This document shows, one piece after another, positions 3,013 to 55,794 of a DNA stretch of 64,000 bases. The stretch's first letter is position 1; each line of letters begins with the position of its first letter. The notes beneath the pieces are model-generated. The model ran no database searches and was not told the origin of the DNA. It saw only the letters and a list, made by a program, of their open reading frames with translations. This DNA is from Parcubacteria group bacterium Athens0714_12. GTDB taxonomy: Bacteria; Patescibacteriota; Patescibacteriia; UBA2591; VMGY01. The translations under genes and the position numbers were made by a program. The stretch is from contig VMGY01000003.1 in assembly GCA_007378955.1 (NCBI GenBank), positions 26,264 through 90,263 on the forward strand. Reading direction: 5' to 3'.

Positions 3013-3020
3013 TATCAATT

Positions 3021-3136
3021 CCTGGCATTGGCCTACTTTCCCACACCCACAATGGGGTAAGTATCATCGGCGCTGAGATGCTTAACTGCCGTGTTCGGAA
3101 TGGGAACGGGTGTTGCCATCTCGCTAGAAACACCAG
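3021..3136 (-). rRNA. rrf: 5S rRNA
   Basis: Reverse complement reads ...ccgaacacggcagttaagc...cgccgatgatac... matching the 5S consensus; located just 3' of 23S. Confidence 0.85.
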
Positions 3137-3520
3137 AAAAATTTATAAATGGTTTTTCCCGCTTAAATTTTTGAGTTAAAAAATATTTTAAAAGCCCAAA
3201 AATTTAAGCGGGAAAAATTGTATTCCAATAATTCTTGCGGTTAAAATGAGTTATTAGTACGGCTCAGCTCAATCCATTGCTGGACTTACACTTGCCGCCT
3301 ATCAAACCTCTAATCTAGAGGACTCTATGAAATCTAATCTTGGGTTAGGCTTCGCACTTAGATGCTTTCAGCGCTTATCCAAACCGAACTTAGCTACCCA
3401 GCGATGCCCTTGGCAGGACAACTGGTACACTAGAGGTTCGTCCTTCCCGATCCTCTCGTACAAGGGAAGAATCCCCTCAAATTTCGACGTCTACGGCAGA
3501 TAGGAGACCGAACTGTCTCA

Positions 3521-4261: not shown

Positions 4262-4323
4262 GTTCTGAACCCAGCTCGCGTATCGCTTTAATTGGCGAAC
4301 AGCCAAACCATTGGGAGCTTCTT

Positions 4324-4367
<44 letters not shown>

Positions 4368-5062
4368 TCGTCGATATGAACTCTTGGAGGAGATCAGCCT
4401 GTTATCCCCGGAGTAGCTTTTATCCGTTGAGCTTCCGCGCTCCTATGAGCAGCGGTCGGATCACTAAGTTCTGCTTTCGCACCTGCGCGGCTTGTAGGCC
4501 TTGCAGTCAAGCTGGCTTTTGCCTTTACGCGTCCAGCGCGGTTTCCATCCGCGCTAAGCCAACCTTTGTAAACTTCTCCGTTACCATTTAGGAGAAATCC
4601 GCCCCAGACAAACTACCTACCAGATACTGTCCCCGGACCGGTACCTGAATTCTTATTTTTAAATAAAAATCCAAATATCGGTCTAGGGTTAGAATTAAAA
4701 ATACACAAGGGTGGTATCTCACTGGCGGCTGCCTTGCGGCAACCTCCCACCTATTCTGAACATGAATATCCCTAATCCAATATCAAGCTATAGTAAAGCT
4801 TCACGGGGTCTTTTCGTCTAGCCGTAGATAAAGAGCATCTTCACTCCTCTTGCAATTTCACCGAGTCTCTCGTCAAGACAGTTCTCATGTTGTTATGCCA
4901 TTCGTGCAGGTCGTAACTCACACGACAAGGGATTTCGCTCATTTTTGTTATCCTTTTAATAAAGGAGTGTAGGCATTTCTGCTACACACTGTATGTCGCC
5001 ATACAGATCGGACTATATCTTCCCGCCTCATTGGCAGGTTTGGCGTATAGTCTCTGGGGATA

Positions 5063-5545
5063 CTAAAGCTTTCTTACCTTTTTACGATTCATCATGCTAA
5101 TTAAATTGGCAATTTTCTTAAAACCAGAATTTTCTAGGTGTTTTCCTTTTCTCATTAATCTTACTACTTGAACAAAAATCTTAAAATCTTTTTTCTTAGC
5201 CGTTTTCAAAAGATTTTTCTCAAAGAATGGAATAATTTTTTCTTCCAATTCTTTTAAATTTCTCACGCAATAACGATAAATGTTTTCTTTGTGATTATCC
5301 CATCTTCTATTAATTGTTATCGTTCCGCAATTGAAAAATTCTTTCATAAGATTTAAAACTGAAAAACTTTTTTTCCCTTGTGTTACCACAAATTCCGGGA
5401 AAACTTGCCAACCGTTTTTGGTTGTCGGATTTCTAAAAATACTAACCGTGAAACAGCCTTCTCCATCAGTAAATCCTACAACCCAATTAGCGAACTTTAG
5501 TCTTTCCTGCTGATTGTCTGCACTAGATGATTTTTCACTTGGCAT
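5063..5545 (-). CDS. LAGLIDADG homing endonuclease (intron-encoded)
   Basis: GFTDGEGCF LAGLIDADG motif; inside the 23S insertion. Confidence 0.8.
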   Translation of the reverse strand: MPSEKSSSADNQQERLKFANWVVGFTDGEGCFTVSIFRNPTTKNGWQVFPEFVVTQGKKSFSVLNLMKEFFNCGTITINRRWDNHKENIYRYCVRNLKELEEKIIPFFEKNLLKTAKKKDFKIFVQVVRLMRKGKHLENSGFKKIANLISMMNRKKVRKL

Positions 5546-5761
5546 AATTAAACTTTATAATATATGGTTTAATTATACCATAGTACCACTAGATACTCCA
5601 GACTTTCCAGCATATAGCCAAATTTTACTAAGGCTAGCAAAACTAACCATAGGACGATTCATTTGTGTTAGCTCATGGTCGCCCATGAGATCGGACTATA
5701 TCATATCACCATCTCTGATGATTTCGGCGTATAGTCTCTGAGGATCCTCTTAATTTAAATT

Positions 5762-5875
5762 TTATTCAATCCATTCCCTGTCAGTAAAACTAGAAAGAAA
5801 ATAACCAAAATAAAATGGAATATTTTTAATAAGAGTTTCCTGCTGATTGTCCCCACTGGACATTTTTTTACTCAT
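5762..5875 (-). pseudogene. truncated remnant of a second intron homing-endonuclease gene (37 codons)
   Basis: MSKKMSSGDNQQETL... parallels the N-terminus of the 5063-5545 HE (MPSEKSSSADNQQERL...), then terminates; the DNA is a diverged duplicate. Confidence 0.45.
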
Positions 5876-6198
5876 TAATTTTGAGTAATGCCAGATACAC
5901 GGGATATTCCAGCATACAGCCGAATTTTATAACTACAATTGTCTCATAGTTATCGCCGGCGTTCATCAGCGCTTAAGTTCAAAGCTTTGCCCTGTAAACA
6001 GGGCTAACCTCTCCCCTTAACGTTCTGACACTGGCCAGGCATCAGCCCCTATACTTCAGCTTTCGCTTTTGCAGGGACCTAAGTTTTTGGTAAACAGTCA
6101 CATGAGATCTTTTACTGCGGGTCGCACAAGGCGACCAATGCTTATTCCGAAGTTACGCACGTTGTATTGCCGAGTTCCTTAACGAGAGTTCTCTCGTA

Positions 6199-6236
<38 letters not shown>

Positions 6237-7401
6237 ACGGTACGGATTTGCCAAACCTAACTCTTCAAAAATTTTCTGGGAAAGTTGCTCATTTGTATCG
6301 CCTTGATAAATCAAAACTTTTCGCCCTTCATTGGGAAAACCCTCAAAGGACAAATGTAAATCCAATAATACACACAAATTACAAACCTTCGTCTTTCTGA
6401 AAAAAATTTGGCAAAGGGTAGGAATATTAACCTACTGTCCATCGTCTACGCCATTCGGCCTCGACTTAGGACCGCCTAACCCTGGGATAATAATTATTGC
6501 CCAGGAAACCTTAGGTTTTCGGTGGTCTGGATTCTCACCAGACTTTTTGCTACTCATACCAACATTCTCTCTTCCATAACCTCCACCGACTCTCGCGGGT
6601 CGGCTTCAATGATTATGGAATGCTCCCCTACCAACCACTGCTACGCAGTGGTTTTACATCTTCGGTATCAAACTTGAGCCCCGGTAAATTTTCGGCGCAA
6701 CGCGACTTGACCAGTGAGCTGTTACGCTTTCTTTGAAAGATGGCTGCTTCTAAGCCAACTTCCTGGTTGTCATAGTTGAATCACTGCCTTTAACACTTAG
6801 TTTGAATTTTGGGACCTTAGATGGTAATCTGGGCTGTTTCCCTTTTGACTAATGGAGCTTAGCCCCCATAGTCTGACTCCAGTCGTATAATGTTGCCGGA
6901 ATTCGGAGTTTGGTTGAATTAAGTAGGCAAAGCCATCTTAACTCATTCAGTGCTCTACCTCCGGACATCACGACCAGGCTAGCCCTAAAGCTATTTCGGG
7001 GAGAACCAGCTATCACGAGGTTCGATTGGAATTTCACCCCTAACCACAACTCATCCCAAAGTATTGCACGACTTACGGGTTCGGGCCTCCCCCCGATTTT
7101 CATCGGGGTTCACCCTGGCCATGGCTAGCTCACCTCGCTTCGGGTCAAATATGTATTACCTTACATTAAATTAGTGAATTAATTATTATTTATAATCAAC
7201 TCACTAATTATAATGTACGCGCGCTATTAACACTTGGTTTCCCTTCGACTCCACTGTTTTAAGCAGTTTAGTCAAGCAACACACATAAACTCGTTGGTTC
7301 ATTCTTCAATAGGCACGCCGTCACCCCGACTTAACGTCAGGGCTCCGACTCCTTGTAAGCATATGGTTTCAGATTCTATTTCATCGCCCTCACCGGGCTA
7401 T

Positions 7402-7437
<36 letters not shown>

Positions 7438-7794
7438 ATGGCCAAAAGTATTTAGCCTTAGGTCATAGTCGACCTGGTTTCAAATAGGATTTCACGTGTC
7501 CTATTTTACTTGAGAAAAATTACTAGAAGCACAAAACACTTTTCATTTACAGGACTTTCACCTTCTATGGTTCCGCTTTCCAACGGATTCAATTAAGTAA
7601 GTTTTGATTAATATTTACTTCCTCCGGTTTTCCTAGTCCCGGAACATAATCCTCTCGCAACATCCTATAAAACATTTTAGCCTAGGAGCCTTACCTTTTA
7701 CTTCAAGTTCCGCCCGAAGGCAGACTTTCCATAAAAGTTAGGTTTTATAAGATTTAGGCTGTTCCCCGTTCGCTCGCCACTACTAGGGGAATGC

Positions 7795-8133
7795 AAGTAA
7801 CTAAACATTGGTAACTGATTTTGAGGGGGGAGATTTCTCCCCCTCGAATTTTTATAAAAAACGGGAAAATTTTATTTCTGTTCCTTCGCCGATGCTAAAA
7901 ATTTTATTAGCATCGCCATTTATAGAACCGCAAAAAGAGACATAAGCGTATTTCTGTTGTTTTTTCTCTTCCACTTTTATTATTTTCGCTCTTATTTTCT
8001 CTTTTTTATTTCTTATCTTTAAAAAAATTTTCATACTGCGATTCGATAAATCTTTTACTTTTATCATTAAGCCCTCCTTTTTTCGTTTTATAAAAATAAT
8101 TAATCCTCAAAATCAGCTACCAAAATTAGTTAC
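7795..8133 (-). other. intervening-sequence (IVS)-like insertion in 23S domain I: about 30-bp inverted-repeat stem enclosing an AT-rich loop with a 71-aa ORF (7852-8067)
   Basis: cctcaaaatcag(c/t)taccaa..ttagttac at 8104-8133 and inverted at 7795-7827; GGGGGAGAtttcTCCCCC hairpin at 7826-7845; flanked by conserved 23S blocks. Confidence 0.45.
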
Positions 8134-8722
8134 TATTATTTTTTTTCTTTTCCTCCGCTTACTGAGATGTTTCACTTCAGCGGGTTTGCTTCGTCAACCT
8201 ATGAATTCAGTTAACGATACTTTGGTTTTAAATCAAAGTGGGTTTCCCCATTCGGAAATCCCCGGGTCAAAGGTTGCTTGCCACCTTACCGAGGCTTATC
8301 GCAGGCTGCTACGTCCTTCATCGCCTTTTGGTCTCAAGGCATCCACCATATGCATTAAAATAACCGCAAGAATTATTGAAATACAATAATTCTTTAAACT
8401 TATATAATGCTCTTTATATTTTTTTGATATGCTTTTTAATTGTCAATGTTCTTTCCTTAACTTCCAGAGATAAGAATATATCCTTATCTTTGAAAACTAT
8501 GGTATTAAAAAAACCGCTTTTAAGCGGCTCTGGACACTACCTAAAATATCCTTAATTTAACCGCTTAGGATTGAAAGTTGTATTAACTGTCGCATAATTA
8601 TTTCTATCTTTAAATAATTAATTTAATTAATGCTTCTTATTATATCAATATCTTTCTCTCTTTTCAATACTCGAAAATGTGAAAGATATGTGGATAACTA
8701 AGGATTATTTTTAGTTAGTTAT

Positions 8723-27649: not shown

Positions 27650-28531
27650 TTAATATCCTAAATTTTCTTTGCACATATTATCAGTAGCGAGCGTCCATCC
27701 CACGCCGCAAATATCTCTGCATTCCCCTTTTAAAGGAAGTAAAGTATATTTATATTCAAGTTGAGGAACGCATTCATTGTCAATTAATTGACAACCGGGC
27801 TGAAGTTCGCAAGCATTTATTCCAAAAAACCCGCATCTCTCCAGTTTACTTGACCAAGAAACTAACGCATCGCTGCAGCAGACTATCTTTGAATCAACTG
27901 GCGGTATTTTATTTTCTATTTCATTTCTTGTTAAACCGCACATGCGCAAGACCTCGCATTTATTGCCTGTCCACCAGCAACCCCAATTATATTGCCCTAA
28001 ACATGCTTCTCTGCCTAAAAAACCGCATTCTTGCCCAGTTTTTTTCGACTGGACATATTCTTTTATATAAATACACTTATCATCAACCCATTGGCAACCT
28101 GGTTCAGGCTCGCATTTTTCTTTGCCAAGCAAACTGCATTTATCCTGAATAATGCCTATTTCGGGCAATTTTAATTTTACCAAATTTGGATTAATGATAT
28201 AAAGCAAACCATAAGAACAAAGCGCTAAAATCAAACCAACCACGGCATTGGAAATTGCTTTTCTCGCTTCGCCGATTTGCGAACCGCTGCCCGCGGCAGT
28301 CAGCCACTGCAGACCGCCCCACATAATCATCACCACTGCCACAACACTAATCGCTCCCAAGCCAAAAGTGTACCAAGCCGCGATGTAAGAAGCTAAATCC
28401 TTGCCCGCGCCTTCCTGCCCGGGAATAGGCACCTGCAAATCAATCGCCTTATCTTGCGCTTTAACTATCAGGCAAAAGCCAAAAACCAATAAGCTCGCTA
28501 AAATAATTTTTGAATATCTTTTATTAAACAT
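27650..28531 (-). CDS. secreted membrane protein with VirB2/TrbC-pilin-like N-terminal module and about 170-aa cysteine-rich C-terminal domain
   Basis: Signal peptide, two hydrophobic helices (WYTFGLGAISVVAVVMIMWGG..; VVGLILALCSYGLLYII), then about 26 Cys. Confidence 0.4.
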   Translation of the reverse strand: MFNKRYSKIILASLLVFGFCLIVKAQDKAIDLQVPIPGQEGAGKDLASYIAAWYTFGLGAISVVAVVMIMWGGLQWLTAAGSGSQIGEARKAISNAVVGLILALCSYGLLYIINPNLVKLKLPEIGIIQDKCSLLGKEKCEPEPGCQWVDDKCIYIKEYVQSKKTGQECGFLGREACLGQYNWGCWWTGNKCEVLRMCGLTRNEIENKIPPVDSKIVCCSDALVSWSSKLERCGFFGINACELQPGCQLIDNECVPQLEYKYTLLPLKGECRDICGVGWTLATDNMCKENLGY

Positions 28532-29646: not shown

Positions 29647-29702
29647 AATTAATAAAATTTCTAATATCTAATATCTAAATAAAATGTCAAAATCCTAATG
29701 CC

Positions 29703-29822
29703 GAATAATATGAAGTGTCATTGCGAGCGACTGGAAGGAGCGAGGCAATCCCGAGGGGAAAGCAGTGAGCGGTGGGATTGCCGCGTCGTTCATTCCGCTT
29801 CTCTCCATTCACTCCTCGCAAT
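29703..29822. repeat. GC-rich long hairpin element, GTCATTGCGAG...GCAATCCC family
   Basis: gtcattgcgagcgac..gcaatccc / gggattgccgcg..ctcgcaatgacagcg inverted; about 60% GC in an about 30% GC context; same family as 43983-44208. Confidence 0.55.
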
Positions 29823-29883
29823 GACAGCGCGAAAGAATATCTTTTGTTATTTTGATTTTTAATAATTTATTGAAAATTGATAA

Positions 29884-31773
29884 TTATTTCTCCCGCTCCA
29901 TCTCTTCCTCAAACTCCTTTTTGGCGGCTTCTATTTCCAAAAGCTGGCGCGGGTCTGAAGTGATAAGCTGGTCTTCCGCGTAAGAAGCGACTACTTTAAT
30001 CGCCGCGTGTTTGGCGCCGGCGAAAAAAATTCCTTCTCCCACTCCGCTTTCCAAAAGCAAATATTTCTCTCCTTCGGTGAGCATAAAAGTTTTAGACACC
30101 AAATCTATCGCCGCCGGCGATTGCTTAAAAAGCAATTGCAAGGCGGAATTATTGACAATCGCGTGGCCATAATCTGAACTCAAAAAATCCTGAACATCTT
30201 GAGTAATCACCGTGATGCCTAAATAATACTTGCGGCATCTTTTAACCAAGGCGTAAATAAATTTGGCTGAATCTTCGTTTTGCATCAGCCACCAAGCTTC
30301 ATCAACAACCAGCATTCTTTTCTTCATTTCCGTTCTGACGATATTCCAAATATAATTGATTATAGTATAAATAGCGATCGGCCTCAATTCGTCCTCCAAA
30401 TCACGGACGGAAAAAACAACTAATTGATTTTTGGTTTCAATATTAGTCGGCTGATTCAATAAACCGGAAAAAGTTCCTTCGGTGTATTTTTTCAAACGCT
30501 CGGCTAAACTTTCCCCGCCTTCCATTCCCTGCAAAACTTCCAATAGGTCGCTCATAATCGGCGCTTCTATCTGTTGGGAAAGATTTGAGGAGGGGGTAAT
30601 GTCTTTTTTGGCGTAAGTTTCCAATAAAGCTCTATCCAATAACGAATCTTCTTCTGGAGTAAAATGCAAAACGCCTTTTTCGTCCGGCACGCCAATCATT
30701 AATTTTAATAATCCTTTTAAGGTGATAACAGCTGTTCTGATAATATCTTCTGTTTTAAAATCTTTGGAAAGCGGCTTGGGCAAATCAAAAGGATTGATTT
30801 TGCTTTCCGAGGCCAAAGAAATATTTATATAACTTCCGCCCACCGCGTCGCAAAGGTGCTTATATTCTCTTTCCGGGTCAATGATAATCATCTCAACGCC
30901 AAACATCATACTCCTTAAAACTTCTAATTTTACGAAATAACTTTTTCCCGCGCCCGACACGGCGAAGACAGTCATATTCGCGTTCTCCAAAGAAAAACGG
31001 TCAAATAAAATCAAACTATTATTATGGCGGTTAACGCCGTAAAGAATGCCGTTATCGCTGGTGACGTCAGCTGAAACAAATGGAAATGAAGAGGCGCAAG
31101 GCGAAGTGTTCATATTAAAAGCAATCATCAGCTCGTCATTAGCCAAGGGCAAAGTGGAATTAAATCCTTGCTCTGACTGATAAAAACTTCTTCGCGAATA
31201 TATTAATTTTGAGCCCAGCAAAGATTCCACTTTTTCAGAAAGCAAATCCAATTCTTTTTGAGAATCAGCGTAAATAGTGATATATAAACTGAATTGAAAA
31301 AATTGTTCAATGCCCTGGGTCAAATCATCTCTTAATTTTTCCATATCCCTTAAAGCGGTTTCTTTTATCGGGTCTCGGGGAGCGCCTTTCTCCACCCCCG
31401 CGGAAATTTCCGCCTCTAATATTCCCACTCTATTTCTTAATTGCTTTAAAATAATTTCTGATTTAACTTTATAAAAATACATCGCGATATCCAAAGGGGC
31501 GGTTAAATTAATGATTGGCGTAAACCAGCCCACATTAATATAGCGGGGATAATTAATGACAAAAAGAGTGCGGATGAATTTATTATTCAATTCCAAATTA
31601 TAAGGATTGATACGCATGGAAGCGGGAGCAATTAAATCACGGACAGAAAATATTCCGGCGCGATAAGCCTCTTCGGACCTTATTAATTCTTTTTCCTCTT
31701 CAATAGTAAGTTTAATTTTTTCTTTATTATCCTTTTCCTTTTCTTCTATTTTTATTTTATTCGCTTTGAACAT
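29884..31773 (-). CDS. VirB4/TrbE-family type IV secretion ATPase (ATPase domain)
   Basis: Walker A VSGAGKSYFVK, Walker B VVDEAWWLM, VirB4-like length and C-terminal organisation. Confidence 0.75.
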   Translation of the reverse strand: MFKANKIKIEEKEKDNKEKIKLTIEEEKELIRSEEAYRAGIFSVRDLIAPASMRINPYNLELNNKFIRTLFVINYPRYINVGWFTPIINLTAPLDIAMYFYKVKSEIILKQLRNRVGILEAEISAGVEKGAPRDPIKETALRDMEKLRDDLTQGIEQFFQFSLYITIYADSQKELDLLSEKVESLLGSKLIYSRRSFYQSEQGFNSTLPLANDELMIAFNMNTSPCASSFPFVSADVTSDNGILYGVNRHNNSLILFDRFSLENANMTVFAVSGAGKSYFVKLEVLRSMMFGVEMIIIDPEREYKHLCDAVGGSYINISLASESKINPFDLPKPLSKDFKTEDIIRTAVITLKGLLKLMIGVPDEKGVLHFTPEEDSLLDRALLETYAKKDITPSSNLSQQIEAPIMSDLLEVLQGMEGGESLAERLKKYTEGTFSGLLNQPTNIETKNQLVVFSVRDLEDELRPIAIYTIINYIWNIVRTEMKKRMLVVDEAWWLMQNEDSAKFIYALVKRCRKYYLGITVITQDVQDFLSSDYGHAIVNNSALQLLFKQSPAAIDLVSKTFMLTEGEKYLLLESGVGEGIFFAGAKHAAIKVVASYAEDQLITSDPRQLLEIEAAKKEFEEEMEREK

Positions 31774-36856: not shown

Positions 36857-39800
36857 TTACGGTATCACCACTATCCGCCCGTCAAACATTTGACCGCCGC
36901 AACCGGCTTGATAGCCGCCGTTATTGCACCAACCCCAATTATCTTGAATCTGAATTGCCGGCCTAAAAACGCAACAGCCGCCATTAGTAATCCCTAAAAC
37001 AGGGCAAACAGCCTGCCAGCCGGCTCCGCCAATCTCGCACCTATAACTATGATAATAATTGAAATAACCTTCTAAACAAGCTTCTGGGGTATGCCCAAAA
37101 TCCCGGCTGTCGCATTCTCCTATTGCCAAATGATTTTTATAAAATCCCGGGAAAGGCCCACTCGCGCTTCCGTCGCCCCAATTAATAATTATATTTCTAA
37201 TGGGCATTTGGTCTTTGTCTACCAAGCTGAAAAATTTAAGACTTGTCCTTATTCTGCCCCTCGCCAAAATATCCCCGCTGTTCTGATTATTGATCGTCAT
37301 TCTATAATTCGCGTCTTGATAGCATTTTCCGCTTGACGGGTCGCAATCCAAAACGCCAACGCTTCTTATTTTTAAAGCCGATATTTGAGGCGCTCTGGAA
37401 GCATTGCTGGCGGTAAAAGTCACATCCCAAACATCGCTATTATTTACAGGCACGTATCCATTGCCAATATTATATTGATAAATTTGGTAAGACCGGGCAA
37501 AAATATCATGTAAACTTGATTTATTATTTTGATAATCATTATCCCCGATATAAAACATTTCCTGCTGAGAGCATTTTGGAAAATTCTCGTGGTCAATAAA
37601 AATAGTTTCTCTGTCCACCGCCCGATTAGGCAAAGCGGCAAAAAGAGGAGAGCAAGTACTGCTATAATTATAGCCAAGAGAATTAGTAAAATTACTTGTC
37701 TGCCAAACCCTGTCAGTCCAAGCTTTATTTTCCGCCCCTTGGGTAACTCCCGCTATTTCAGCGCATCTTTCGCCAGTACTTAAAATATTGCAATCTCCTT
37801 GGCTTAAATTAGGAATTATGGTTAAAGTGGCGGAAATATAACAGCCATTGCCGCCAATAACTTCGCAATCCCATTCGCATCTGTCATGCAAGCCTCTCCG
37901 ATATGTGCGGGTATTTCTCTCCACAAAGCCAAAGGGACAGCCATCGCATTCCCCCGAATCTTCATGATAACTTGCTCTCCAATCATAATTAAGTTCTTCT
38001 TTCTCCAAGCAATAAAACGGACCCTCGCCCAAACCTAATCCTCCGGCATTAAACCCGGCTTCCACATATTGATTATATAAATCAGAAGCGCCGACAATCA
38101 AATCAATAGGCATCCAGGTCAAACAGGCGAATTGGTCGCTTTTGCCATTGATGGTTTTACTCTTGTCTCTTTCCAAGCAATAGCCCTCCCAGCCGATATA
38201 ATTAACTTTTTTCTTAACTGGCGCGCAATGGCCATCTCCATCTCGGCAATCTTGAACTGTCACTTCTTGCCCGCAGAATTTTCCGTCTTCTTCTCCCCCC
38301 TGGCAAATAGAATCAGGAATAGTTAAATTATTTCCGGCAAAATATTTTTCTTCGCCACTGCCGTAAGACACTTTTTGATAATGACAATCGCAAGCCTCTA
38401 CTTCGCCATCGCCCGCGTCTTGGCAATAATTCGCGTTGGCAAATTCCGTGATTACTCTGGTGTTATTAGAAAAAGGGCTTTCTTTTTGAGGATACCCGCG
38501 GCAGGAAGAAGATAGCGCGCCGCCATTAGGCAAATTTCCATCTATGCCCGCCACGCACCGCTGGCTGTAGCAAAGCCCGTTTCTCCCTCCGATGTTGCAA
38601 GCCGAACCATTGGCGCTTCCCGACGGGCAATCGCCCAAAATATAAACTAATTTATTTTCCGGATTATCCAAACTGCCAAAATTAATTGAACTTAATAAAT
38701 GAATTTGATATTTATCAAACAAGGAATATCCTGAAAAATCCAAAGCTTCCCATTGACCTGTGTTCAAAGAAGCATAAACATCTTGAGTCAGAGGCTGAAG
38801 CAAATTAGGGTCATTTACTTCATTACTGCAACTAAATCCCCGCCCAAAACCTAATGACTGGTCGCAAAGAATCAAACCGCCGTCTTCGCAAACTTCTTTA
38901 TACTTGCCGATGCGGGAATCAAAAACCATATGCGTATTTTCGCAAGTAAGCCATTGCCCGCATTCTCTGTCTCTGAGCACTTTTAAAAGATTATCTTCGC
39001 CTTCTCTCGCTTGGCCATTGAAATTAATTCCCATTTTTTCTAATTTAACGCAACTATCTTTCCAATCTTCCTTAGAACAAAAAGAGAGTTTGTTATTATC
39101 CATGTAATAATAAGTTTCTCCTGTTAAATTTTCCGTATTTTCCTGATATGGCCTGAATTGCGTGCAGCCGCTGTATTTTGAAGGGCATAAGCCGGCCCAG
39201 CCAATATCAGGGTATCTATCTTCATCAATGTCACAATTTAAATTATTTACTTTAGTGAACCAGCCGGAAGTAATGACTCCGTTCAGATTAATATTTTCTT
39301 TAAACTCGCAAACTCTTTCGCCCGGGTCTTTAAAATAAGCCGTTGCTCCATTTGCTTCATATGCTTCGCATTTATCCTCGCTATTTTGGCAAAGTATCGG
39401 ACTGATTATTTTTTCCGGAGTAGAAATATATTGGTCGGGATTATTTTTTAAATAAACTGTTTGCCAAATTTGCCCATTGCTTGAATCTAATTTTAAATTC
39501 CCATTTGCGTCCAAACTCGGAAGGCCGAATACCCTGCAACCTTTATCATCGCTATGGCAATAATTCTTGGAATTAACCACGACATAAACCAAAGCATCGC
39601 TTTGTACGGTGACATCATCTATATTATCTCCTCCCTGATTAAAGCTTTCTTCATAAGGAGAAGATGAATTTCGGGTGTCTATTAAAAGTTCACAGCCTGC
39701 TTTGTCTTCTTCGCAAAGGCGGGAAAATGATTTTAAATAATATCTATTTCCTTTTTTATCTTTATATTCCTCGCAATTAATTTGCGCTTTTGTGATTGGC

Positions 39801-42800
39801 TGGTCGCAGACTGCTGGCGTATCCGCGGAATTTTTTATCAAATAAAGGCTGTCGAAAATTTCTTTCAAAATAATATTATCTAAGTAAAAAACTCCTTGTC
39901 CGTTAATCACGATGCTTTCTCCGCCATTTTCTTCCGCGTCAAAAGAAATCGGGCCTACGGTGTATGAATTCCATTCGTTAGAAATTAAGTTTACTCTGCC
40001 GAATTCCAAACTTAAATCAGGCCTTCGCAATTCGCTCAAAAGCTGGCCTTCTCCTTTTGCCCAAAAACTCAAAACATAACTTCTGCCTGGCAACGGCGAA
40101 ATTGATTTTGAAACCGCGCCGTTTACCCTTAAAGAATGCCCGCTGATATTTACCGATTCATTGCTGTTAACTCCTCCTTGCCAGCTCTGATTAGTTAAAT
40201 CTTCAAAATCATTTTTAAATAAAACGCGATAATTATTGGCGGACGCGCCTTTATATTCTCTGCAGCCCGCGCTCTGCCGGGAACATTTAACGCCTTGGCT
40301 GGGAATAGCCATATAAATACAATTATTATTCTGCCAAGTCCCGCCAGTCGCGTCGCAATCCTGCAAATTAGAATCTGTTTTTCTCAAAGGATGGCAATCA
40401 TCAGAACAGGTGATAGTTTTAGAATAAGAACGATAAAAAATTTCTCCATTGGTATTATAAAATTCCCGGCAATCAGGGTTGGTTAAAATTTTCTGACTGC
40501 AACTATTTGGGTCGTCAGAAACTAAATTAGGGTCGCAGCAACTGCCGGAATTATCAACAGTGGCAGGGACGCCCCCAGCCACTGACTCTAAATTATAAAC
40601 TTCCAATTGATATCCGGTTTGTTCGGAGCCGACCCAAGTATAAAAATTAGCGCAACTTAAATTCGGCTTCTGACATTGCCTTAAATACGTATAATATTCT
40701 TTGCCTTCGCCGCCTTGAGCCACCACATCCAAATTCGTAAATTCTTCGCAACCCGCATTCTGCGCTGAACATTTCTTCGCGTTTTTAGCGATTAAAGCCG
40801 TAAGGTCATTTCCTGTATCAAAAAAAGTGGGTGATTGCTTATAATAACGATAACCGACGCATTCCGCGGGGCATTTATTATAATCCATAATTACGCCCGG
40901 AATATCCGGCTCTCCCTGCCTTGAAACCGGAGTATAAAGCCGGCAGCCTAAATCATTCGCGTTGCAATAAGTCCGATTGCCATTAAGATAAATTTTTTCC
41001 ACCTCGGCATAATTTTCATATATATCATTTTCATCCGCATCAGCTTGCACAATATTAAAAACATCCGCCAAACTTCTATTTTCCGTAATCTTGCTTAAAT
41101 ATAAAAATTCTTCACAGCCTGATTCTTTCTCGTCGCATTTTTTAGCATTTTTATTTAAATAAATCCTGTCATTAACGTTCCATTGTTCATTAAGCATAGA
41201 CTGGCTGTACCATTTGCATCCGGCATTGTCGGCATCACAGCCATTTCTTTCCAAAGTATTGGTTAAATAGGAAAAAACCTTTCCGTCTTCCCGCCTGTAA
41301 GTTGAACAAGTGTCAAAATAAAAAGGGCATTCATCACCGCCTAAACGCCAAACATTTTTTTCTCTTAAGCAATATCCCCAGCCGCCCCGGCAATTACCAT
41401 TTTTGTCTTCACTGATGCAACTGGGCGTGTCCACGCAGACATCCTGCCTCCTATTGCTTTCATTGGATTCTAAAAATGTTCCTGAAACAAGGGACTTGCA
41501 TTGCGTAAGCGGCGCTTTTAAAAGCCACTCGGGGTCAATAAGATGAAAATATTTAGAATCAGGATTATCAAAATTATCCATCATTTGCTTTAAAGTCGCT
41601 TCTCCTTTGGAAATAGAGGCTGCTATTTCCCACCCTAAAGGTAAAATTCTAACTTTTCTTAATTTGACCAAATTACTATGGCAATAAGCGTATGTATAAC
41701 AATAAGCGTCTTGATTTTTAGCAATCTCTTCAGGAGAAATCAAAAGCCAATCGCCCTTGATGTATCCTTGCTCTATCGCTTCTCTGACGGTTAATTTTTC
41801 TCTTATCGCGTGAGCGAAATTTTCATCAATCGCGCAATTATCAATTGAGGCAAAACGAGTATCCTCCGGGCAAGAAACAAATTTGCTTAAAGGATTGTAT
41901 TCGCCGCCGGAACGGATATCAGGCACCGCCAAAGAAGAAAAGACATTTCGGGCTTTAGTGATGCCGCCCGCGCTTAAACCGCTTCCGAATCTGTTATAAT
42001 CTTCATCATCGCCTAAATCCATTAAACTCCAAAATCCTTTTTTCATTCTGTCCGTCAAGCGCGCCGTTAAAGTATTGGTAAAAATTGAAATTGTGTCCGC
42101 CCAAATTTCTCCGGTAAATGTTTTTTCCGGGGCATCCGCGCCTTTGATAGAATTTTTAACTTGTTCTTGGCTAAGGTCGGCCGGAGTTTCTATTTGTTCG
42201 GAAATAGGAGAGGTCACGTCTTTAACCCAATTACCAGCTCTCTTTAATTCAGCGTTAGTTTGAGCTTTTTGTTGGACGCTTAACATTTGACTGGATAAAG
42301 TTAAATAAGTTCCTATGTCATTTTGAGTTGGTTCAAAGCTAACCGCGAATCTTCTTAAAAAATTAGGGTCTTTCAAGGCTTTCTGCCAATTATTTCTCAT
42401 TTCTTTCCAGGTGCATTTTACTTCTCTCGGTTTTATTTCTTCACCCAATCCCAATTGAATTTTTAATTTAGCGGAAATATCTGAAGGTTCGCAGATGTTT
42501 ATATTCCATTGGCTGACGCAAACATCAGATATTTGCTTGTAAAGCCCTTCATCCGTTTTAGGGCAAGGACTTATTTCCGCTCCATTTATATCACTCAACC
42601 ATCTGCAATCAGCGGGGTCATTTGGATTATTGCACTGGCAATGAGTGCCAATAGGAGAACAAAAATTATTTTTGCCGCATCGCGCGGTTGAATTTCCCTT
42701 GCAATAGCCCGAACCGCTACTGACTAAAGTTTCCAGAAAATCTCCCGCCGCCGCGTCAGCCGCGTCTTCCAAATAAGTCTTCCAATTCTTAGTAAATAAA

Positions 42801-43147
42801 AGCGGTTTTTGGCCTTTATCTCCGCTGCCAATCCAGACCGCCGTGTCATAAGCGATTTTAGTGGTAAAAGTTTTTAAAGCGTTTTTAAAAGCAATCGCCG
42901 CCACCTTGTTATAAAGAAACTCCCCTGCTTTTTCTATTCTTTCCCATACCCATTTTGACATATTCATAACTGTTTGAATTGGATCTGTAACTACCCATTG
43001 AGCATTTGCTGGCTTTGGATAAAACAAAACAGGAATAATAACTTGCAAAATAAAAAATATCAAAACCACGCTGGCGATAACTTTTGTCTTGCCAGAATGT
43101 TTTGATGATTTGTTTTTGGGATTAAATTTCTGTTCCCGCCAAACCAT
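36857..43147 (-). CDS. giant (2096 aa) secreted cysteine-rich protein with a concanavalin/LamG-like lectin domain; putative surface adhesin of the T4SS-like locus
   Basis: N-terminal signal-anchor; more than 150 Cys in CxxC/CxC/CC-rich modules; central jelly-roll-like segment (about aa 975-1100) ending in YLDNIILKE. Confidence 0.65.
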   Translation of the reverse strand: MVWREQKFNPKNKSSKHSGKTKVIASVVLIFFILQVIIPVLFYPKPANAQWVVTDPIQTVMNMSKWVWERIEKAGEFLYNKVAAIAFKNALKTFTTKIAYDTAVWIGSGDKGQKPLLFTKNWKTYLEDAADAAAGDFLETLVSSGSGYCKGNSTARCGKNNFCSPIGTHCQCNNPNDPADCRWLSDINGAEISPCPKTDEGLYKQISDVCVSQWNINICEPSDISAKLKIQLGLGEEIKPREVKCTWKEMRNNWQKALKDPNFLRRFAVSFEPTQNDIGTYLTLSSQMLSVQQKAQTNAELKRAGNWVKDVTSPISEQIETPADLSQEQVKNSIKGADAPEKTFTGEIWADTISIFTNTLTARLTDRMKKGFWSLMDLGDDEDYNRFGSGLSAGGITKARNVFSSLAVPDIRSGGEYNPLSKFVSCPEDTRFASIDNCAIDENFAHAIREKLTVREAIEQGYIKGDWLLISPEEIAKNQDAYCYTYAYCHSNLVKLRKVRILPLGWEIAASISKGEATLKQMMDNFDNPDSKYFHLIDPEWLLKAPLTQCKSLVSGTFLESNESNRRQDVCVDTPSCISEDKNGNCRGGWGYCLREKNVWRLGGDECPFYFDTCSTYRREDGKVFSYLTNTLERNGCDADNAGCKWYSQSMLNEQWNVNDRIYLNKNAKKCDEKESGCEEFLYLSKITENRSLADVFNIVQADADENDIYENYAEVEKIYLNGNRTYCNANDLGCRLYTPVSRQGEPDIPGVIMDYNKCPAECVGYRYYKQSPTFFDTGNDLTALIAKNAKKCSAQNAGCEEFTNLDVVAQGGEGKEYYTYLRQCQKPNLSCANFYTWVGSEQTGYQLEVYNLESVAGGVPATVDNSGSCCDPNLVSDDPNSCSQKILTNPDCREFYNTNGEIFYRSYSKTITCSDDCHPLRKTDSNLQDCDATGGTWQNNNCIYMAIPSQGVKCSRQSAGCREYKGASANNYRVLFKNDFEDLTNQSWQGGVNSNESVNISGHSLRVNGAVSKSISPLPGRSYVLSFWAKGEGQLLSELRRPDLSLEFGRVNLISNEWNSYTVGPISFDAEENGGESIVINGQGVFYLDNIILKEIFDSLYLIKNSADTPAVCDQPITKAQINCEEYKDKKGNRYYLKSFSRLCEEDKAGCELLIDTRNSSSPYEESFNQGGDNIDDVTVQSDALVYVVVNSKNYCHSDDKGCRVFGLPSLDANGNLKLDSSNGQIWQTVYLKNNPDQYISTPEKIISPILCQNSEDKCEAYEANGATAYFKDPGERVCEFKENINLNGVITSGWFTKVNNLNCDIDEDRYPDIGWAGLCPSKYSGCTQFRPYQENTENLTGETYYYMDNNKLSFCSKEDWKDSCVKLEKMGINFNGQAREGEDNLLKVLRDRECGQWLTCENTHMVFDSRIGKYKEVCEDGGLILCDQSLGFGRGFSCSNEVNDPNLLQPLTQDVYASLNTGQWEALDFSGYSLFDKYQIHLLSSINFGSLDNPENKLVYILGDCPSGSANGSACNIGGRNGLCYSQRCVAGIDGNLPNGGALSSSCRGYPQKESPFSNNTRVITEFANANYCQDAGDGEVEACDCHYQKVSYGSGEEKYFAGNNLTIPDSICQGGEEDGKFCGQEVTVQDCRDGDGHCAPVKKKVNYIGWEGYCLERDKSKTINGKSDQFACLTWMPIDLIVGASDLYNQYVEAGFNAGGLGLGEGPFYCLEKEELNYDWRASYHEDSGECDGCPFGFVERNTRTYRRGLHDRCEWDCEVIGGNGCYISATLTIIPNLSQGDCNILSTGERCAEIAGVTQGAENKAWTDRVWQTSNFTNSLGYNYSSTCSPLFAALPNRAVDRETIFIDHENFPKCSQQEMFYIGDNDYQNNKSSLHDIFARSYQIYQYNIGNGYVPVNNSDVWDVTFTASNASRAPQISALKIRSVGVLDCDPSSGKCYQDANYRMTINNQNSGDILARGRIRTSLKFFSLVDKDQMPIRNIIINWGDGSASGPFPGFYKNHLAIGECDSRDFGHTPEACLEGYFNYYHSYRCEIGGAGWQAVCPVLGITNGGCCVFRPAIQIQDNWGWCNNGGYQAGCGGQMFDGRIVVIP

Positions 43148-43220: not shown

Positions 43221-43937
43221 TTATTCGGGCTTCGCGTTTTGCCGGTTCAACGCCTCTAAAAATAAAGTTCTTAAAGTCTTGTCATCAATTTGGTCCAAAA
43301 TTTCTTTTTCCGCGCCGCCTTCCATTAAAATGTTTCTGATGTCTTGAGCGGATAAATTTTCCAAGAGCGCTTGATTATTTTTTAAAACATCGGGGTTGAG
43401 ATTTTTTTCCAATGACAAATTTTCTGGGTTAATGCCCGTTTCTTTTATAGTTTCATTATACACTTCTTTTAAAGTCTTGTCATCAATTTTATCCAGAGTT
43501 TCTTTGTCCATTCCCGACTTGATTAAAAAATCTTTTATTTCTTCGGCGGATAATTCTGTTTCATCGCTTGACGAATCTTGTGAAGAAGATTCTACTGAAA
43601 CGGTTCCGCAAATTTCTCCTTCCGGACAAGAAGGATTTGTTCCCTTCTCTATTTCTTCTTTATCAAAAATTCCGTCGCCATCCGTATCTTCCAAATAAGG
43701 CGATGTCTTATAAACATTGAGCTCGTTAAAATCATTTAAGCCGTCTTTATCAGTATCTATATTATTTAAATCCAATAATTCCGAAACTTTTTGTTGTTCG
43801 CCTTGGTCATTGGCCGCTGAATTAAACGGCCTATAAATATTTGACTTGAATTGAAAAAAGGCGATAAAAAAAATCAGAATAGTTAAAAAACTTAAGCCCA
43901 ATAAAGATAATTTTTGCCGCTTGTTAAGAGATTTCAT
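43221..43937 (-). CDS. secreted calcium-binding protein with thrombospondin-type-3/dockerin-like DxDxDG loops and an internal duplicated domain
   Basis: Signal peptide; DTDKDGLNDFNE and DTDGDGIFDKEE loops; duplicated ETLDKIDDKTLKEVY / EILDQIDDKTLRTLF. Confidence 0.6.
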   Translation of the reverse strand: MKSLNKRQKLSLLGLSFLTILIFFIAFFQFKSNIYRPFNSAANDQGEQQKVSELLDLNNIDTDKDGLNDFNELNVYKTSPYLEDTDGDGIFDKEEIEKGTNPSCPEGEICGTVSVESSSQDSSSDETELSAEEIKDFLIKSGMDKETLDKIDDKTLKEVYNETIKETGINPENLSLEKNLNPDVLKNNQALLENLSAQDIRNILMEGGAEKEILDQIDDKTLRTLFLEALNRQNAKPE

Positions 43938-43982
43938 TAATTATAATTATAGCAAATAAATTAGAAAAGATAAATAAAAAAG

Positions 43983-44208
43983 ATGTCATTGTGAGGAACC
44001 TCGAGATTGCTTCGCCTGCTGGCTCGCAATGACAGGGCGGAAGAGTGTCATTGCGAGGAGCGACTGAAGGGAGCGACGAAGCAATCCCGTGTCCACTTGT
44101 CATTGCGAGGAGCGACCCCAAGGAGCGACGCGGCAATCCCGTTGTCTATCGCGTCCCCACTCTGTCATTGCGAGGAGGCAGCAGCCGACGCGGCAATCCC
44201 GTGAGTAT
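43983..44208. repeat. four tandem copies of the GC-rich GTCATTGCGAGGAGCGAC...GCAATCCCG element
   Basis: Units start at about 43986, 44047, 44099 and 44165; first unit is itself a hairpin (tgtcattgtgagg..ctcgcaatgaca). Confidence 0.6.
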
Positions 44209-45021
44209 TTATTTTAATTTCTCGCTAAGCCTGATCCAATCTTCCACGCTCAAATCCTGCGCCCTGATTTTCGGATTAAAATTCAATTTTTTAAATATTT
44301 CTTTTATCTCTTCATTGTTCATTTTTAATCCCGTGGCTAAGTTATTGTGTAATTGCTTCCGCCTGTTTGAAAAACCTATTTTTACTATCTTAAAAAAAAC
44401 TTTTTCATCTATTCTTGATTCTTGGCTTTTAATTTTTAATCTGATAATCGCGCTGTCCACTTTTGGCTCGGGATAAAAACTTTTTTTAGAGACCAAGCTG
44501 ATAATCTCCGGTTGGCTGTAAAACTGGACTGCCACGGAAAGCAAAGACATTTTACCCGGCCTTGCCGCGATTCTTTCGGCAACTTCTTTTTGAACTAATA
44601 AAACCATTTCTTCGGGCTTTATTTTGTTTTCTAAAAATTTCCGCAAAAAATTGCCGGTAATAGAATAAGGAATATTAGCGACAATCTTAAAGTTATGAGT
44701 TATAAGTTGCTGGTTGTAAGTTAATTTCAAAATGTCTCCTTCAATAATCTCCACATCTTTATAATCCTTCAAAATATCTTTCAAGGCTCTGATTATATTT
44801 TTATCAATTTCCACGGCCATGACTTTTTTAACTCTTTTGGCTAATGCTTGCGTTAAAATACCAAACCCCGGGCCAACTTCCAAAATTAAATCATCTTTTT
44901 TTAAATCAGCCGCTTCAATTATTTTATCTAAAATTTTATTGTCAATTAAAAAATTCTGCCCTTTCCAAGACTTGGGCAGAAGATTATATTTTTGGCAAAG
45001 AAATTTAATATCATTTAACAT
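44209..45021 (-). CDS. rsmA: 16S rRNA (adenine1518/1519-N6)-dimethyltransferase
   Basis: LEVGPGFGILT SAM motif, NIPYSIT, full KsgA architecture. Confidence 0.85.
   Translation of the reverse strand: MLNDIKFLCQKYNLLPKSWKGQNFLIDNKILDKIIEAADLKKDDLILEVGPGFGILTQALAKRVKKVMAVEIDKNIIRALKDILKDYKDVEIIEGDILKLTYNQQLITHNFKIVANIPYSITGNFLRKFLENKIKPEEMVLLVQKEVAERIAARPGKMSLLSVAVQFYSQPEIISLVSKKSFYPEPKVDSAIIRLKIKSQESRIDEKVFFKIVKIGFSNRRKQLHNNLATGLKMNNEEIKEIFKKLNFNPKIRAQDLSVEDWIRLSEKLK
44690..44725. repeat. AAGTTATGAGTTATAAGTTGCTGGTTGTAAGTT repeat antisense and in frame inside rsmA
   Basis: Encodes LTYNQQLITHNF; same motif family as the tRNA-leader repeats. Confidence 0.5.
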
Positions 45022-48968: not shown

Positions 48969-50009
48969 ATGGTTAATCCGTTTATTTCTAAAAGAGTAAT
49001 TTTTCCTCCAAGCGAACAAAAAAAATTTATTATTGAAAATAAAAAAACTCTTGATTTATCAGATGAAAAACTGGCTTATTTATTAAAAATCAACCATCGG
49101 ACATTAACTAACTGGAAACGAGAAAAATTTTCTATTTCATTAAAAGCAGTTAAAATTATTTTAAAAAAAACTGATGGGAAAATGCCAAAAAATGTGGAAA
49201 TTAAGGAGGCTTTTTGGTATGCAAACAAAGGTGCTAAATTAGGCGGATTGACTGTATATAAAAAATATGGGAAAATAGGCGGCGATCCAGAATATAGAAA
49301 AAAGAAATGGTATGAATGGTGGGAAAAAATCGGAAAATTTAATCCAAATGAATATTTTGTAGCCAAAAAAATTGTTATGCCTCAAAAAAATACGGATTTA
49401 GCTGAATTCATTGGGATTATGATAGGAGATGGCGGGATTACCAAAAATCAAATAACTGTAAGTCTTAATTATAAAACTGATAAACTTTACAGTATTTTTG
49501 TAAAAAATCTTATTAGAAAACTTTTTAAAATAAATCCGAGCATTTATATCAGAAAAAATCAATCCTTAACTAATATTGTTGTTTCACGAAAACGTTTAGT
49601 ATTATTTTGTAAATCTTTGGGTTTAAAAATTGGCGATAAATTAAAACAAAATTTAGATATTCCTCAATGGATTAAAAAAAATAAATCTTTCAAAATTTTC
49701 TGCTTAAGGGGCTTGATGGACACTGACGGTTGTATATTTAATGAATGCCATAAAATTAATGAAAAAAAATATTGCTATCATAGATTATCTTTTGTAAGTC
49801 ATTCAAAACAACTTCGTTCCTCAGTCTTTAAAATATTAGAAGAATTAGATTTTTCTCCAAAAATTCGCAATAATAGAAGTGTGCAATTAGAAAGTCGAAA
49901 AGATGTTATAAAATATTTTAATTTAATAAGCACTAATAATCCAAAACATAAGAAACGTTTTAAATATTTTTTAGGAGGGGTCGGGAGTGGTTGTCCCAAG
50001 CGGTCTTGA
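48969..50009 (+). CDS. free-standing LAGLIDADG homing endonuclease with N-terminal HTH-like domain; 3' end overlaps tRNA-Ser
   Basis: Two LAGLIDADG motifs: GIMIGDGG and LRGLMDTDGC. Confidence 0.75.
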   Translation: MVNPFISKRVIFPPSEQKKFIIENKKTLDLSDEKLAYLLKINHRTLTNWKREKFSISLKAVKIILKKTDGKMPKNVEIKEAFWYANKGAKLGGLTVYKKYGKIGGDPEYRKKKWYEWWEKIGKFNPNEYFVAKKIVMPQKNTDLAEFIGIMIGDGGITKNQITVSLNYKTDKLYSIFVKNLIRKLFKINPSIYIRKNQSLTNIVVSRKRLVLFCKSLGLKIGDKLKQNLDIPQWIKKNKSFKIFCLRGLMDTDGCIFNECHKINEKKYCYHRLSFVSHSKQLRSSVFKILEELDFSPKIRNNRSVQLESRKDVIKYFNLISTNNPKHKKRFKYFLGGVGSGCPKRS

Positions 50010-50062
50010 AAACCGCTAGGGCTGCAAGGCCCTCGTGGGTTCGAATCCCACCCCCTCCGCCA
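49974..50062 (+). tRNA. tRNA-Ser (anticodon TGA), long variable arm, CCA encoded
   Basis: ggagggg/cccctcc acceptor; loop ctTGAaa; variable arm tagggctgcaaggccctc. Confidence 0.8.
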
Positions 50063-50096: not shown

Positions 50097-50187
50097 GGAG
50101 GAGTGCGGCGAATGGTAAGCCAGCAGTTTGCTAAACTGTAACCGTGTCAAAAGCGGTTTGTGGGTTCGACTCCCACCTCCTCCGCCA
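50097..50187 (+). tRNA. tRNA-Ser (anticodon GCT), long variable arm, CCA encoded
   Basis: ggaggag/ctcctcc acceptor; loop ttGCTaa; variable arm taaccgtgtcaaaagcggtt. Confidence 0.8.
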
Positions 50188-54123: not shown

Positions 54124-55660
<1,537 letters not shown>

Positions 55661-55794
55661 AAAAAATAATTAGTTTAAAAAACTAATTATCACAAAAAAA
55701 TAGACATTCTTACTTTTGCAAAATTCTCGCAAATTTTGCAAAACACAATCACTTTCTAATTGTCAAAGTACTTTTTCCATTTCTACATTTCTAT

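Follow-up and report, generated by a model that had tools for sequence, protein, structure and literature searches.

The window analysed here is a stretch of 64,000 nucleotides (64 kb) of contig VMGY01000003.1 from Parcubacteria group bacterium Athens0714_12, a genome of the Candidate Phyla Radiation (CPR), in which copies of a short GC-rich palindromic unit are present at two sites, an array next to the gene rsmA and a solitary dimer some distance upstream in the numbering. Both sites are very probably copies of a non-autonomous, dispersed palindromic DNA element of the repetitive extragenic palindromic (REP) kind, belonging to the superfamily of REPs that carry a CGTC or TGTC tag. This is an already described class of REP-like elements and what is new is mainly its presence in a tiny CPR genome; the instance in the window is itself ordinary, the noteworthy points being the presence in CPR, the breadth of phyla and the copies lying in frame in essential genes.

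Family members were collected from public collections using the exact pattern GTCATTGCGAGG-N15-45-GCAATCCC, which yielded 161 unique units, and using a looser search that permitted a single mismatch each in head and tail. The consensus of the unit is composed, from 5' to 3', of an unpaired tag (Y-GTC), the first strand of a 5-bp outer stem (ATTGC, stem P1), GA, a variable inner hairpin of 3-12 bp (P2), G-N-R, the second strand of the outer stem (GCAAT) and a 3-nt tail, C(C/T)C. GA stands opposite G-N-R in a purine-rich internal loop, and the inner hairpin often contains tandem G·A/A·G mismatches. Units are 28-60 nt long, the shortest form (28 nt) being GTCATTGCGAGCGnAGCGAAGCAATCTC, or d(GTCATTGCGAGCGAAGCGAAGCAATCTC) as a DNA strand. 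Position -1, which is part of no search pattern, is a pyrimidine in 95% of 422 units (T 69%, C 26%), while the invariance of GTC is partly built in by the search pattern; the tail of these 422 units reads C, then C (60%) or T (39%), then C. Conservation ends right after the tail and is absent beyond position -1, and the boundaries of the unit are sharp.

In the 161 unique units, the stretch left free by the pattern folds into a hairpin at a constant distance from both ends. Its pair 1 is G-C in 95% of the units, pairs 2-3 are Watson-Crick or tandem G·A/A·G, and for pairs 4 and 5 the paired fraction is 87% and 89%, respectively, with all four Watson-Crick types represented. When the 3' anchor was moved by 1-2 positions as a control, pairs 1, 4 and 5 were paired in 2-65% of units, mostly less than 40%. 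An alignment of 56 sequences (A1) had 88.3% of its cells paired, versus 17-54% with slid partners, and 75 double-change cells, versus 27.8 in shuffles (0 of 500 shuffles equalled the observed value). The outer stem covaries as well: 330 of 378 unique units have ATTGC/GCAAT there, and compensated variants (ATCGC/GCGAT, ATTAC/GTAAT, ATTCC/GGAAT and ATTGT/ACAAT) retain the A-T/T-A start. It is this covariation across the family, and not the folding energy of the copies in the window, that carries the structural case: the architecture of the unit is under structural constraint, in single-stranded form.

In the window, the original prediction had reported a GC-rich block (about 60% in an about 30% GC genome) abutting the rsmA stop, and this is confirmed by the window composition, GC being 0.615 at 44000-44199 versus about 0.30-0.35 in the flanking DNA. 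The block (43985-44200) is bounded by the rsmA stop codon (44209-44211, minus strand) and by a TSP3-repeat gene that starts at 43937 (minus strand), and the last unit of the array ends about 7-8 nt from the rsmA stop codon. The repeat family is real: the window has 8 occurrences of GTCATTGCGAGG with at most 2 mismatches, versus 2.2 expected, a count reached in 0 of 100 shuffles. Units were counted over the 64 kb with cmsearch, using a covariance model (R1) trained on family members from outside the window. Exactly six full units were obtained (four at 44003-44200 and two at 29717-29825; Table 1), the next-best match reaching 13 bits only. The array is therefore made of a truncated head, one inverted unit and three tandem units, and not of four tandem units as had been proposed. 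The truncated head pairs with the head of the adjoining inverted unit (hairpin 43984-44034, z-score -1.9), the inverted unit folds as DNA into P1 and a 3-bp P2 (z -2.0), and the first two tandem units share 87% identity. All seven heads in the window are T-GTC. Weak R1 matches at 37844-37872 and 38810-38840, inside a gene encoding 2096 aa, are AT-rich and lack the inner hairpin, and were rejected as chance matches.

Table 1. Units and part-units of the repeat found in the 64-kb window.
Feature	Position	Strand	Evidence
Truncated unit head, T-GTCATTGTGAGGAAC, without tail	43985-43999	+	Not reported by R1 as a full unit
Complete minimal-type unit, inverted, GTCATTGCGAG-CCAGCAGG-CGAAGCAATCTC	44003-44033	-	cmsearch, 27.0 bits, E 4e-6
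Tandem unit 1, GTCATTGCGAGGAGCGACTGAAGGGAGCGACGAAGCAATCCC	44047-44088	+	cmsearch, 47.9 bits, E 1e-12
Tandem unit 2	44099-44140	+	cmsearch, 46.0 bits; repeat search, family D2
Tandem unit 3, GTCATTGCGAGGAGGCAGCAGCCGACGCGGCAATCCC	44164-44200	+	cmsearch, 55.0 bits, E 7e-15 (top match in the window)
Solo dimer, left arm	29717-29752	+	cmsearch, 41.3 bits
Solo dimer, right arm	29774-29825	-	cmsearch, 32.1 bits
Whole tags-outward (head-to-head, HH) dimer, T-GTCATTGCGAG...CTCGCAATGAC-A	29716-29826	.	Folding, flanking open reading frames (ORFs), Pfam

The second site had been described as a solo copy forming a near-perfect hairpin of about 120 nt at 29703-29822. A hairpin is indeed formed, and it folds better than 200 of 200 shuffles (z -3.9 as RNA, -3.4 as DNA), but it is imperfect, measures 109 nt (29717-29825) and is a dimer of two inverted units, of which the right arm has a long, badly paired insert where the P2 hairpin would be. 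The dimer occupies the gap separating the stop of the TraG/VirB4-like ATPase gene from the start of the following one, and the presence nearby of genes of type IV secretion system (T4SS) type was recovered with Pfam (T4SS_pilin, 27650-28531; TraG/VirB4-like ATPase, 29884-31773). Folding, which had been suggested as a check, thus sets the solo dimer above shuffled sequence, but not the single units of the window (z -2.0 to +0.5), for which folding energy is accordingly unusable as evidence. The pairings of GTCATTGCGAGG with CCTCGCAATGAC and of GCAATCCC with GGGATTGC, which had been assigned to each unit, exist between inverted partners only; such a partner is missing for the three tandem units, and inside a unit the pairing is that of ATTGC with GCAAT, together with the inner hairpin.

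Far from lacking further copies or any structure beyond chance, the repeat of the window belongs to a family that is very widespread. The exact pattern is present in 44 viral-contig stretches and, among the matches listed, in at least 120 genome stretches from about 19 phylum-level groups. The carriers, according to record titles, are Chloroflexota, Bacteroidota, Ignavibacteriota, Bacillota, Alpha-, Beta-, Gamma- and 'Delta'-proteobacteria, Gemmatimonadota, Patescibacteria (Parcu-, Morani- and Daviesbacteria), Acidobacteriota, Nitrospirota, Methylomirabilota, Elusimicrobiota, Omnitrophota, Planctomycetota, Hydrogenedentota, Latescibacterota, Spirochaetota, Verrucomicrobiota and Cyanobacteriota; no archaeon is among the 120 genome loci listed. 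Cultured organisms (Mucilaginibacter, Chryseobacterium, Kangiella, Bradyrhizobium, Dapis) and plasmids of Methylosinus and Methylocystis are also carriers, so that binning contamination cannot account for the breadth of phyla. Methylosinus trichosporium OB3b is a further cultured carrier, and complete genomes rich in the repeat include Dehalococcoidia OZ244879.1, Bradyrhizobium NZ_CP120697.1, Kangiella japonica and Chloroflexus. Units are carried by phages as well as by plasmids: they occur in tailed-phage contigs, and the plasmid and phage reference collections contain matches in 4 plasmids and 2 unannotated phage records only, with no annotated feature beneath the matches in these records. 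Full-text literature searches with the DNA strings and the encoded peptides returned only chance primer matches, and no description of a REP-like element or miniature inverted-repeat transposable element (MITE) in CPR/Patescibacteria was found in the searchable literature.

Arrangement was examined at 242 unique sites identified by pattern search, of which 116 have a single unit, 83 a tags-outward dimer, 7 a tags-inward dimer and 6 a tandem pair, the rest being mixed arrays. In tags-outward dimers the tails face each other, often across a spacer of about 10 nt. Most dimers are heterodimers, in which a GAGG...CCC unit is joined to a minimal GAGC...CTC unit (60 of 105 combine the GAGG and GAGC types). 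The abundance of single-unit sites and the existence of tandem and mixed arrays indicate that the unit, and not the dimer, is the building block. An array of longer period, differing from the compact arrays of the other loci, was seen in a Cyclobacterium metagenome-assembled genome (MAG; locus L118, 1555-2359), where four units on the same strand, each having a 52-nt body (GTCATTGCGAGGCTTAGGGGAGGCTTTG...GCAATCCC), recur every 190-310 nt or so.

Based on crude longest-ORF gene calls, 64% of the sites are intergenic versus about 15% expected, and divergent, convergent and tandem intergenic regions are occupied roughly as available. Units nevertheless also tolerate, and are tolerated in, protein-coding frames, and intragenic copies are found in both orientations. 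Three related CPR rsmA genes (loci L182, L183 and L191) have an in-frame unit in the interdomain linker of RsmA, encoding ...PLPVIARSEATKQPFF... and longer stretches, and a fourth (L184) has a unit variant with a compensated outer stem; the rsmA of the window and those of other relatives have no insertion at the linker. Two in-frame dimers are located in the leucyl-tRNA synthetase (LeuRS) of Parcubacteria GW2011_GWB1_42_6, and others in a further class I aminoacyl-tRNA synthetase, UvrA, UvrB, a histidine kinase, a MiaB-like enzyme and a Mur ligase. CPR rsmA genes contain further in-frame GC-rich palindromic modules (L183, 1840-1880; L191, 1160-1195; L178, rsmA at 4001-4981); one of them is CTGCCCGCCGGAGCTTCAGCGTAGGCGGG, encoding the peptide CPPELQRRRE, and the L178 gene contains the stretches YPVKSPAKGSGAIKSQFNR, IYPVKCRQAAISPKAKLFHR and RQPASPELQRGEGFGESKG. 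In CPR genomes there seem to be several families of such repeats that coding sequences tolerate.

Both gain and loss of units are seen at homologous sites. Related tailed-phage contigs, recognised by their portal, capsid and adaptor genes, carry either empty portal alleles (four genes, ...LLYGRAI-EKKQATITEVW...) or filled ones (six genes, ...LYGDVIASAAKQSQGIATSPRFIGAPRND...), in which a 75-nt dimer, with or without one more unit, occupies the same place. The intergenic region upstream of the portal gene has from 0 to more than 5 units depending on the member. Dimers and arrays would expand and contract through recombination between units, which is illustrated by a comparison of loci L005 and L017 and by a tandem duplication in L101. 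In one portal gene (L014, 3572-5128, minus strand), the first unit of the dimer is a minimal unit (GTTATTGCGAGCGA...CGAAGCAATCTC) with a different GC-rich hairpin, CCTGCCCGCCGAAGCTTGGCAGGCGGGAG, nested in its loop, which suggests an origin of variable inner hairpins by the insertion of other small palindromes into the loop.

For the array of the window itself, two other samples yielded contigs of the same genome that stop about 36 nt beyond the rsmA stop, within the array, as short-read assemblers do at multi-copy repeats; assemblies of this genome break at or near it. The closest rsmA relative among 241 M metagenome records has about 65-70% protein identity and keeps the upstream MFS-rsmA synteny (MFS, major facilitator superfamily), and its rsmA is followed by an 84-nt AT-rich spacer without repeats and by a different downstream gene. 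The array therefore sits at a synteny break, the relative being too distant to date an insertion.

The original prediction had left the choice between a selfish MITE-like element and a structured RNA. As a structured RNA, the unit would, for example, stabilise an mRNA in cis, signal processing or termination, or form a small RNA, and its stem and G·A loops would bind a conserved protein. The strong covariation of P1 and P2 is in line with this proposal, as are the tandem G·A motifs, which are classic protein-binding modules of RNA, the location of the window copies between co-directional genes of apparent operons, and the retention of a unit just upstream of the ribosome-binding site of the portal gene in several phages. 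It nonetheless has very little probability in our estimation. Units show no coupling to transcription direction: between co-directional genes, 27 run the same way as the genes and 20 the other way, which is no bias, divergent intergenic regions are used as well, in-frame genic copies run both ways, and the three tandem units of the window are antisense to both neighbouring genes. No intrinsic terminator (stem followed by a T-tract) was found on the gene strand at either window site. The Rfam search that had been recommended gave nothing on the repeats at the gathering score, and at E<=10 the sole match in 43850-44350 was mir-251 (E=8), unrelated and outside the repeats. Among stem mismatches, G·T is not in excess over A·C (24 versus 22), whereas G·A/A·G outnumber T·C/C·T by 345 to 9. 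Terminal loops are mostly of 3-4 nt (up to more than 20 nt), mainly triloops and heterogeneous tetraloops, with GNA in 22 of 38 triloops, GNRA in 6 of 42 tetraloops and no UUCG. Typical features of stable DNA hairpins are C-GNA-G triloops and tandem sheared G·A pairs, which would here favour a DNA hairpin over RNA.

The MITE-like description stood better, as far as it concerns a sharply bounded, dispersed, multi-copy element with presence/absence alleles and in-frame copies. In its classic form, the element would be an internally deleted derivative of an insertion sequence with a DDE transposase, moved by cut-and-paste and delimited by terminal inverted repeats TGTCATTGCGAG...CTCGCAATGACA, and the dimers do measure 69-153 nt with perfect terminal inverted repeats of 11-12 nt. 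This explanation is however extremely improbable: no target-site duplication of 2-8 bp was detected above the shuffled control at 82 isolated dimers with three offsets, nearly half of the sites are single units, and the arms of a dimer are usually of different unit types. An all-against-all comparison of 670 neighbouring proteins disclosed no recurring protein family in the 120 genome loci (about 8 kb each), the only genes that recur being structural genes of phages, and no pair of units enclosing a transposase gene was seen in the loci. A phmmer search with an approximate IS200 TnpA query, which is a weak test, gave no match in the window and 168 loci (1.2 Mb).

For the REP-like element that we favour, the proposed mechanism would be as follows. 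The units would spread as folded single-stranded DNA hairpins, the strand bearing the G·A pairs being the one that folds and is recognised. A trans-acting nuclease or transposase, either of the HUH/Y1 type or another enzyme, may cut and join beside the YGTC tag; unequal recombination between units would afterwards lengthen and shorten dimers and arrays. The chemistry is established for REP/RAYT (RAYT, REP-associated tyrosine transposase) and IS200/IS605. The window copies are most likely neutral passengers, and no evidence was found for a secondary effect of the array on the transcript downstream of rsmA.

Several points weigh against this interpretation. The mechanism by single-stranded DNA and an HUH enzyme is an analogy drawn from REP/RAYT and IS200/IS605, neither a transposition event nor an enzyme having been observed, and the context statistics depend on the crude gene calls mentioned above. 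In a Deltaproteobacteria MAG, two dimers at unrelated loci (L052, 5903-5976; L057, 6731-6804) have nearly identical units and spacers that are both of 10 nt but unrelated in sequence (GATTGCAACC versus GCGGATCATC), which is not predicted by simple copy-and-paste of whole dimers. The units of the window, which have weak inner hairpins and are singly not more stable than shuffled sequence, may be decaying copies. The body of the unit, with its 5-bp stem, GA/GNR internal loop(s) and variable inner hairpin of 3-12 bp, differs from the single stem of 8-9 bp with a loop of 4-5 nt given for CGTC REPs in the text description of Di Nocera, De Gregorio & Rocco (2013, BMC Genomics 14:522, PMC3733652). 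Finally, orthologous units in rsmA and upstream of the phage portal gene persist with compensatory changes, which could also mean host-level selection on the structure and not selfishness alone.

The last point leads to the explanation by host-beneficial DNA sites, bound by a conserved host protein and kept by selection, comparable to the sites for gyrase, IHF and Pol I in the bacterial interspersed mosaic elements (BIMEs) of E. coli. Besides this persistence, it would account for the approximately 20 nucleotides that are invariant over the phylum-level groups and common to carriers of 30-70% GC, and for the fact that no transposase is known for the superfamily as described in PMC3733652. We regard it as very improbable, considering that copy number is highly uneven, related phages and genomes ranging from copy-free to densely arrayed, that 477 kb of rsmA-bearing loci are almost free of copies, and that insertions in the coding sequences of essential genes and of the phage portal gene fit a site-specific host role poorly. 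Di Nocera et al. argue likewise from the 50-fold variation in family size (PMC3733652, article text). A further proposal, doubtful but less so, is that the family represents a hitherto uncharacterised, pan-bacterial branch of YGTC-tagged repeats, with CPR, tailed phages and plasmids among its carriers. Its core of about 20 invariant nucleotides and its G·A hairpin would be held constant by a widespread non-RAYT enzyme or host factor that copies or inserts folded single-stranded DNA without target duplication, in essential genes included, and phages would act as vectors between phyla.

For annotation, the GC-rich island of the window is explained by the REP-like repeats and should be either masked or given a repeat-region annotation. 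The repeats leave 5 of 6 reading frames open, and the resulting ORFs of 54-143 aa (43924-44136, minus strand; 44007-44204, 44045-44476 and 29698-29862, plus strand) are spurious; gene callers could list such ORFs as 'hypothetical proteins' with the motifs SLRGA, CHCEER, LLAMT and PRND. If the present description holds, REP-like elements reach reduced CPR genomes and add 10-45 residues in frame to essential enzymes (RsmA, LeuRS), which is relevant to the annotation of CPR genomes, to alignments and to structure prediction. A core that is invariant at 30-70% GC without a known transposase would in that case sharpen the question, raised by Di Nocera et al. (2013), of how CGTC-type REPs propagate, and the filled and empty portal alleles of phages are a tractable test case for it.

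Other features of the window were noted. The 2096-aa product of the gene at 36857-43147 (minus strand) is a giant cysteine-rich protein with no Pfam domain on record, encoded directly downstream of the TSP3-repeat gene and near the T4SS_pilin and TraG/VirB4-like ATPase genes. The 23S rRNA gene (4210-8365, minus strand) is 4156 nt long versus 2925 positions in the model, corresponding to insertion(s) of about 1.2 kb, and the 16S gene (54125-55666, minus strand) is unlinked, about 46 kb from the 23S-5S pair (5S, 3020-3137, minus strand). Both 23S insertions and an unlinked 16S gene are typical of CPR genomes. The tRNA gene at 49974-50062 (plus strand) matches tRNA-Sec in Rfam (53 bits, gathering score 47), was called tRNA-Ser(tga) by ARAGORN and has a tRNA-Ser(gct) gene as its neighbour (50097-50187). 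It probably encodes a serine tRNA with a long variable arm, not a selenocysteine tRNA. Beside leuS, an ORF of 346 aa (48969-50009, plus strand) has a faint LAGLIDADG_3 match and may be a free-standing homing-endonuclease-like gene.

The units were compared with known repeat systems. CRISPR arrays have identical direct repeats of 28-37 nt and unique spacers of similar length; this identity was rejected for the array of the window, in which units differ internally (at most 87% identity), gaps are of 10-23 nt and orientations are mixed. Integron attC sites, hammerhead-like motifs and k-turns were rejected on the basis of spacing, conserved boxes and bulge geometry, which do not fit. MITEs derived from DDE insertion sequences, such as Correia and Nezha, resemble the present family in size, in the terminal inverted repeats of dimers and in multi-copy dispersal, and differ in that the family has no target-site duplication, a monomer as building block and no parent insertion sequence that could be found. 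Rickettsia palindromic elements (RPE) are reportedly in-frame palindromic repeats of protein genes, tolerated in surface or linker regions (Ogata and colleagues, 2000, are said to have described them), and in-frame copies are likewise found here, in rsmA, LeuRS, UvrA, UvrB and the phage portal gene. RPE-1, of about 100-150 bp, is confined to Rickettsia, whereas the present units are shorter, GC-rich and found in many phyla. GTAG-tagged REPs with their RAYT (TnpA_REP), including REP doublets (REPINs) and E. coli BIMEs, are similar as short tagged hairpins that form inverted dimers foldable as one long hairpin, occur in mixed arrays, lack target duplication and are mainly intergenic. They differ by their tag, which is YGTC here, and by the single-copy, REP-flanked RAYT/Y1 gene, of which no unit-flanked counterpart was found in the window or the loci; in addition, GTAG REP/RAYT pairs are lineage-specific and vertically inherited, whereas the sequence of the present units is conserved across phyla.

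The closest resemblance is to the CGTC-tagged REP superfamily, which in the text description of PMC3733652 comprises the families CGTC-1 to -4, including dRS3 of Neisseria and RPE-4 and RPE-6 of Rickettsia. Its members have a terminal unpaired CGTC (variants TGTC and CCTC), a stem whose first pairs are A-T and T-A, and a 3-nt unpaired tail. The present units share the tag, mostly as T-GTC, the A-T/T-A start and the 3-nt tail, which reads C(C/T)C instead of the published consensus CCA. In the published families HH dimers (tags outside) predominate, tail-to-tail dimers are rare, head-to-tail dimers are negligible and heterodimers are frequent, and the same preponderance of HH dimers and of heterodimers is seen here. 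Published in-frame copies lie in uvrA, uvrB, dnaE and a Rickettsia dimethyladenosine transferase, and the intragenic copies found here likewise concern, notably, DNA-repair and translation genes. The encoded heads are also similar, being translated as V-I, ...N-D or ...M-T (compare VIPAKAGI and ...RGND), although the peptides VIARSEATKQS, SLRGAKRRSN, CHCEERSDEAI, APRND and LLAMT are not in the CGTC-1 to -4 list of Additional file 3 (PMC3733652). As described in that article, the superfamily covers 5 phyla, varies 50-fold in family size and has no transposase that could be found; in the 120 genome loci of about 8 kb each, no dedicated transposase was found, and the range is wider here, with about 19 phylum-level groups among the matches listed and phages in addition. 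The present units agree with the text description in tag, start of the stem, length of the tail, dimer arrangement and in-frame copies and depart from it in the geometry of the body, and they were assigned to this known REP-like class.

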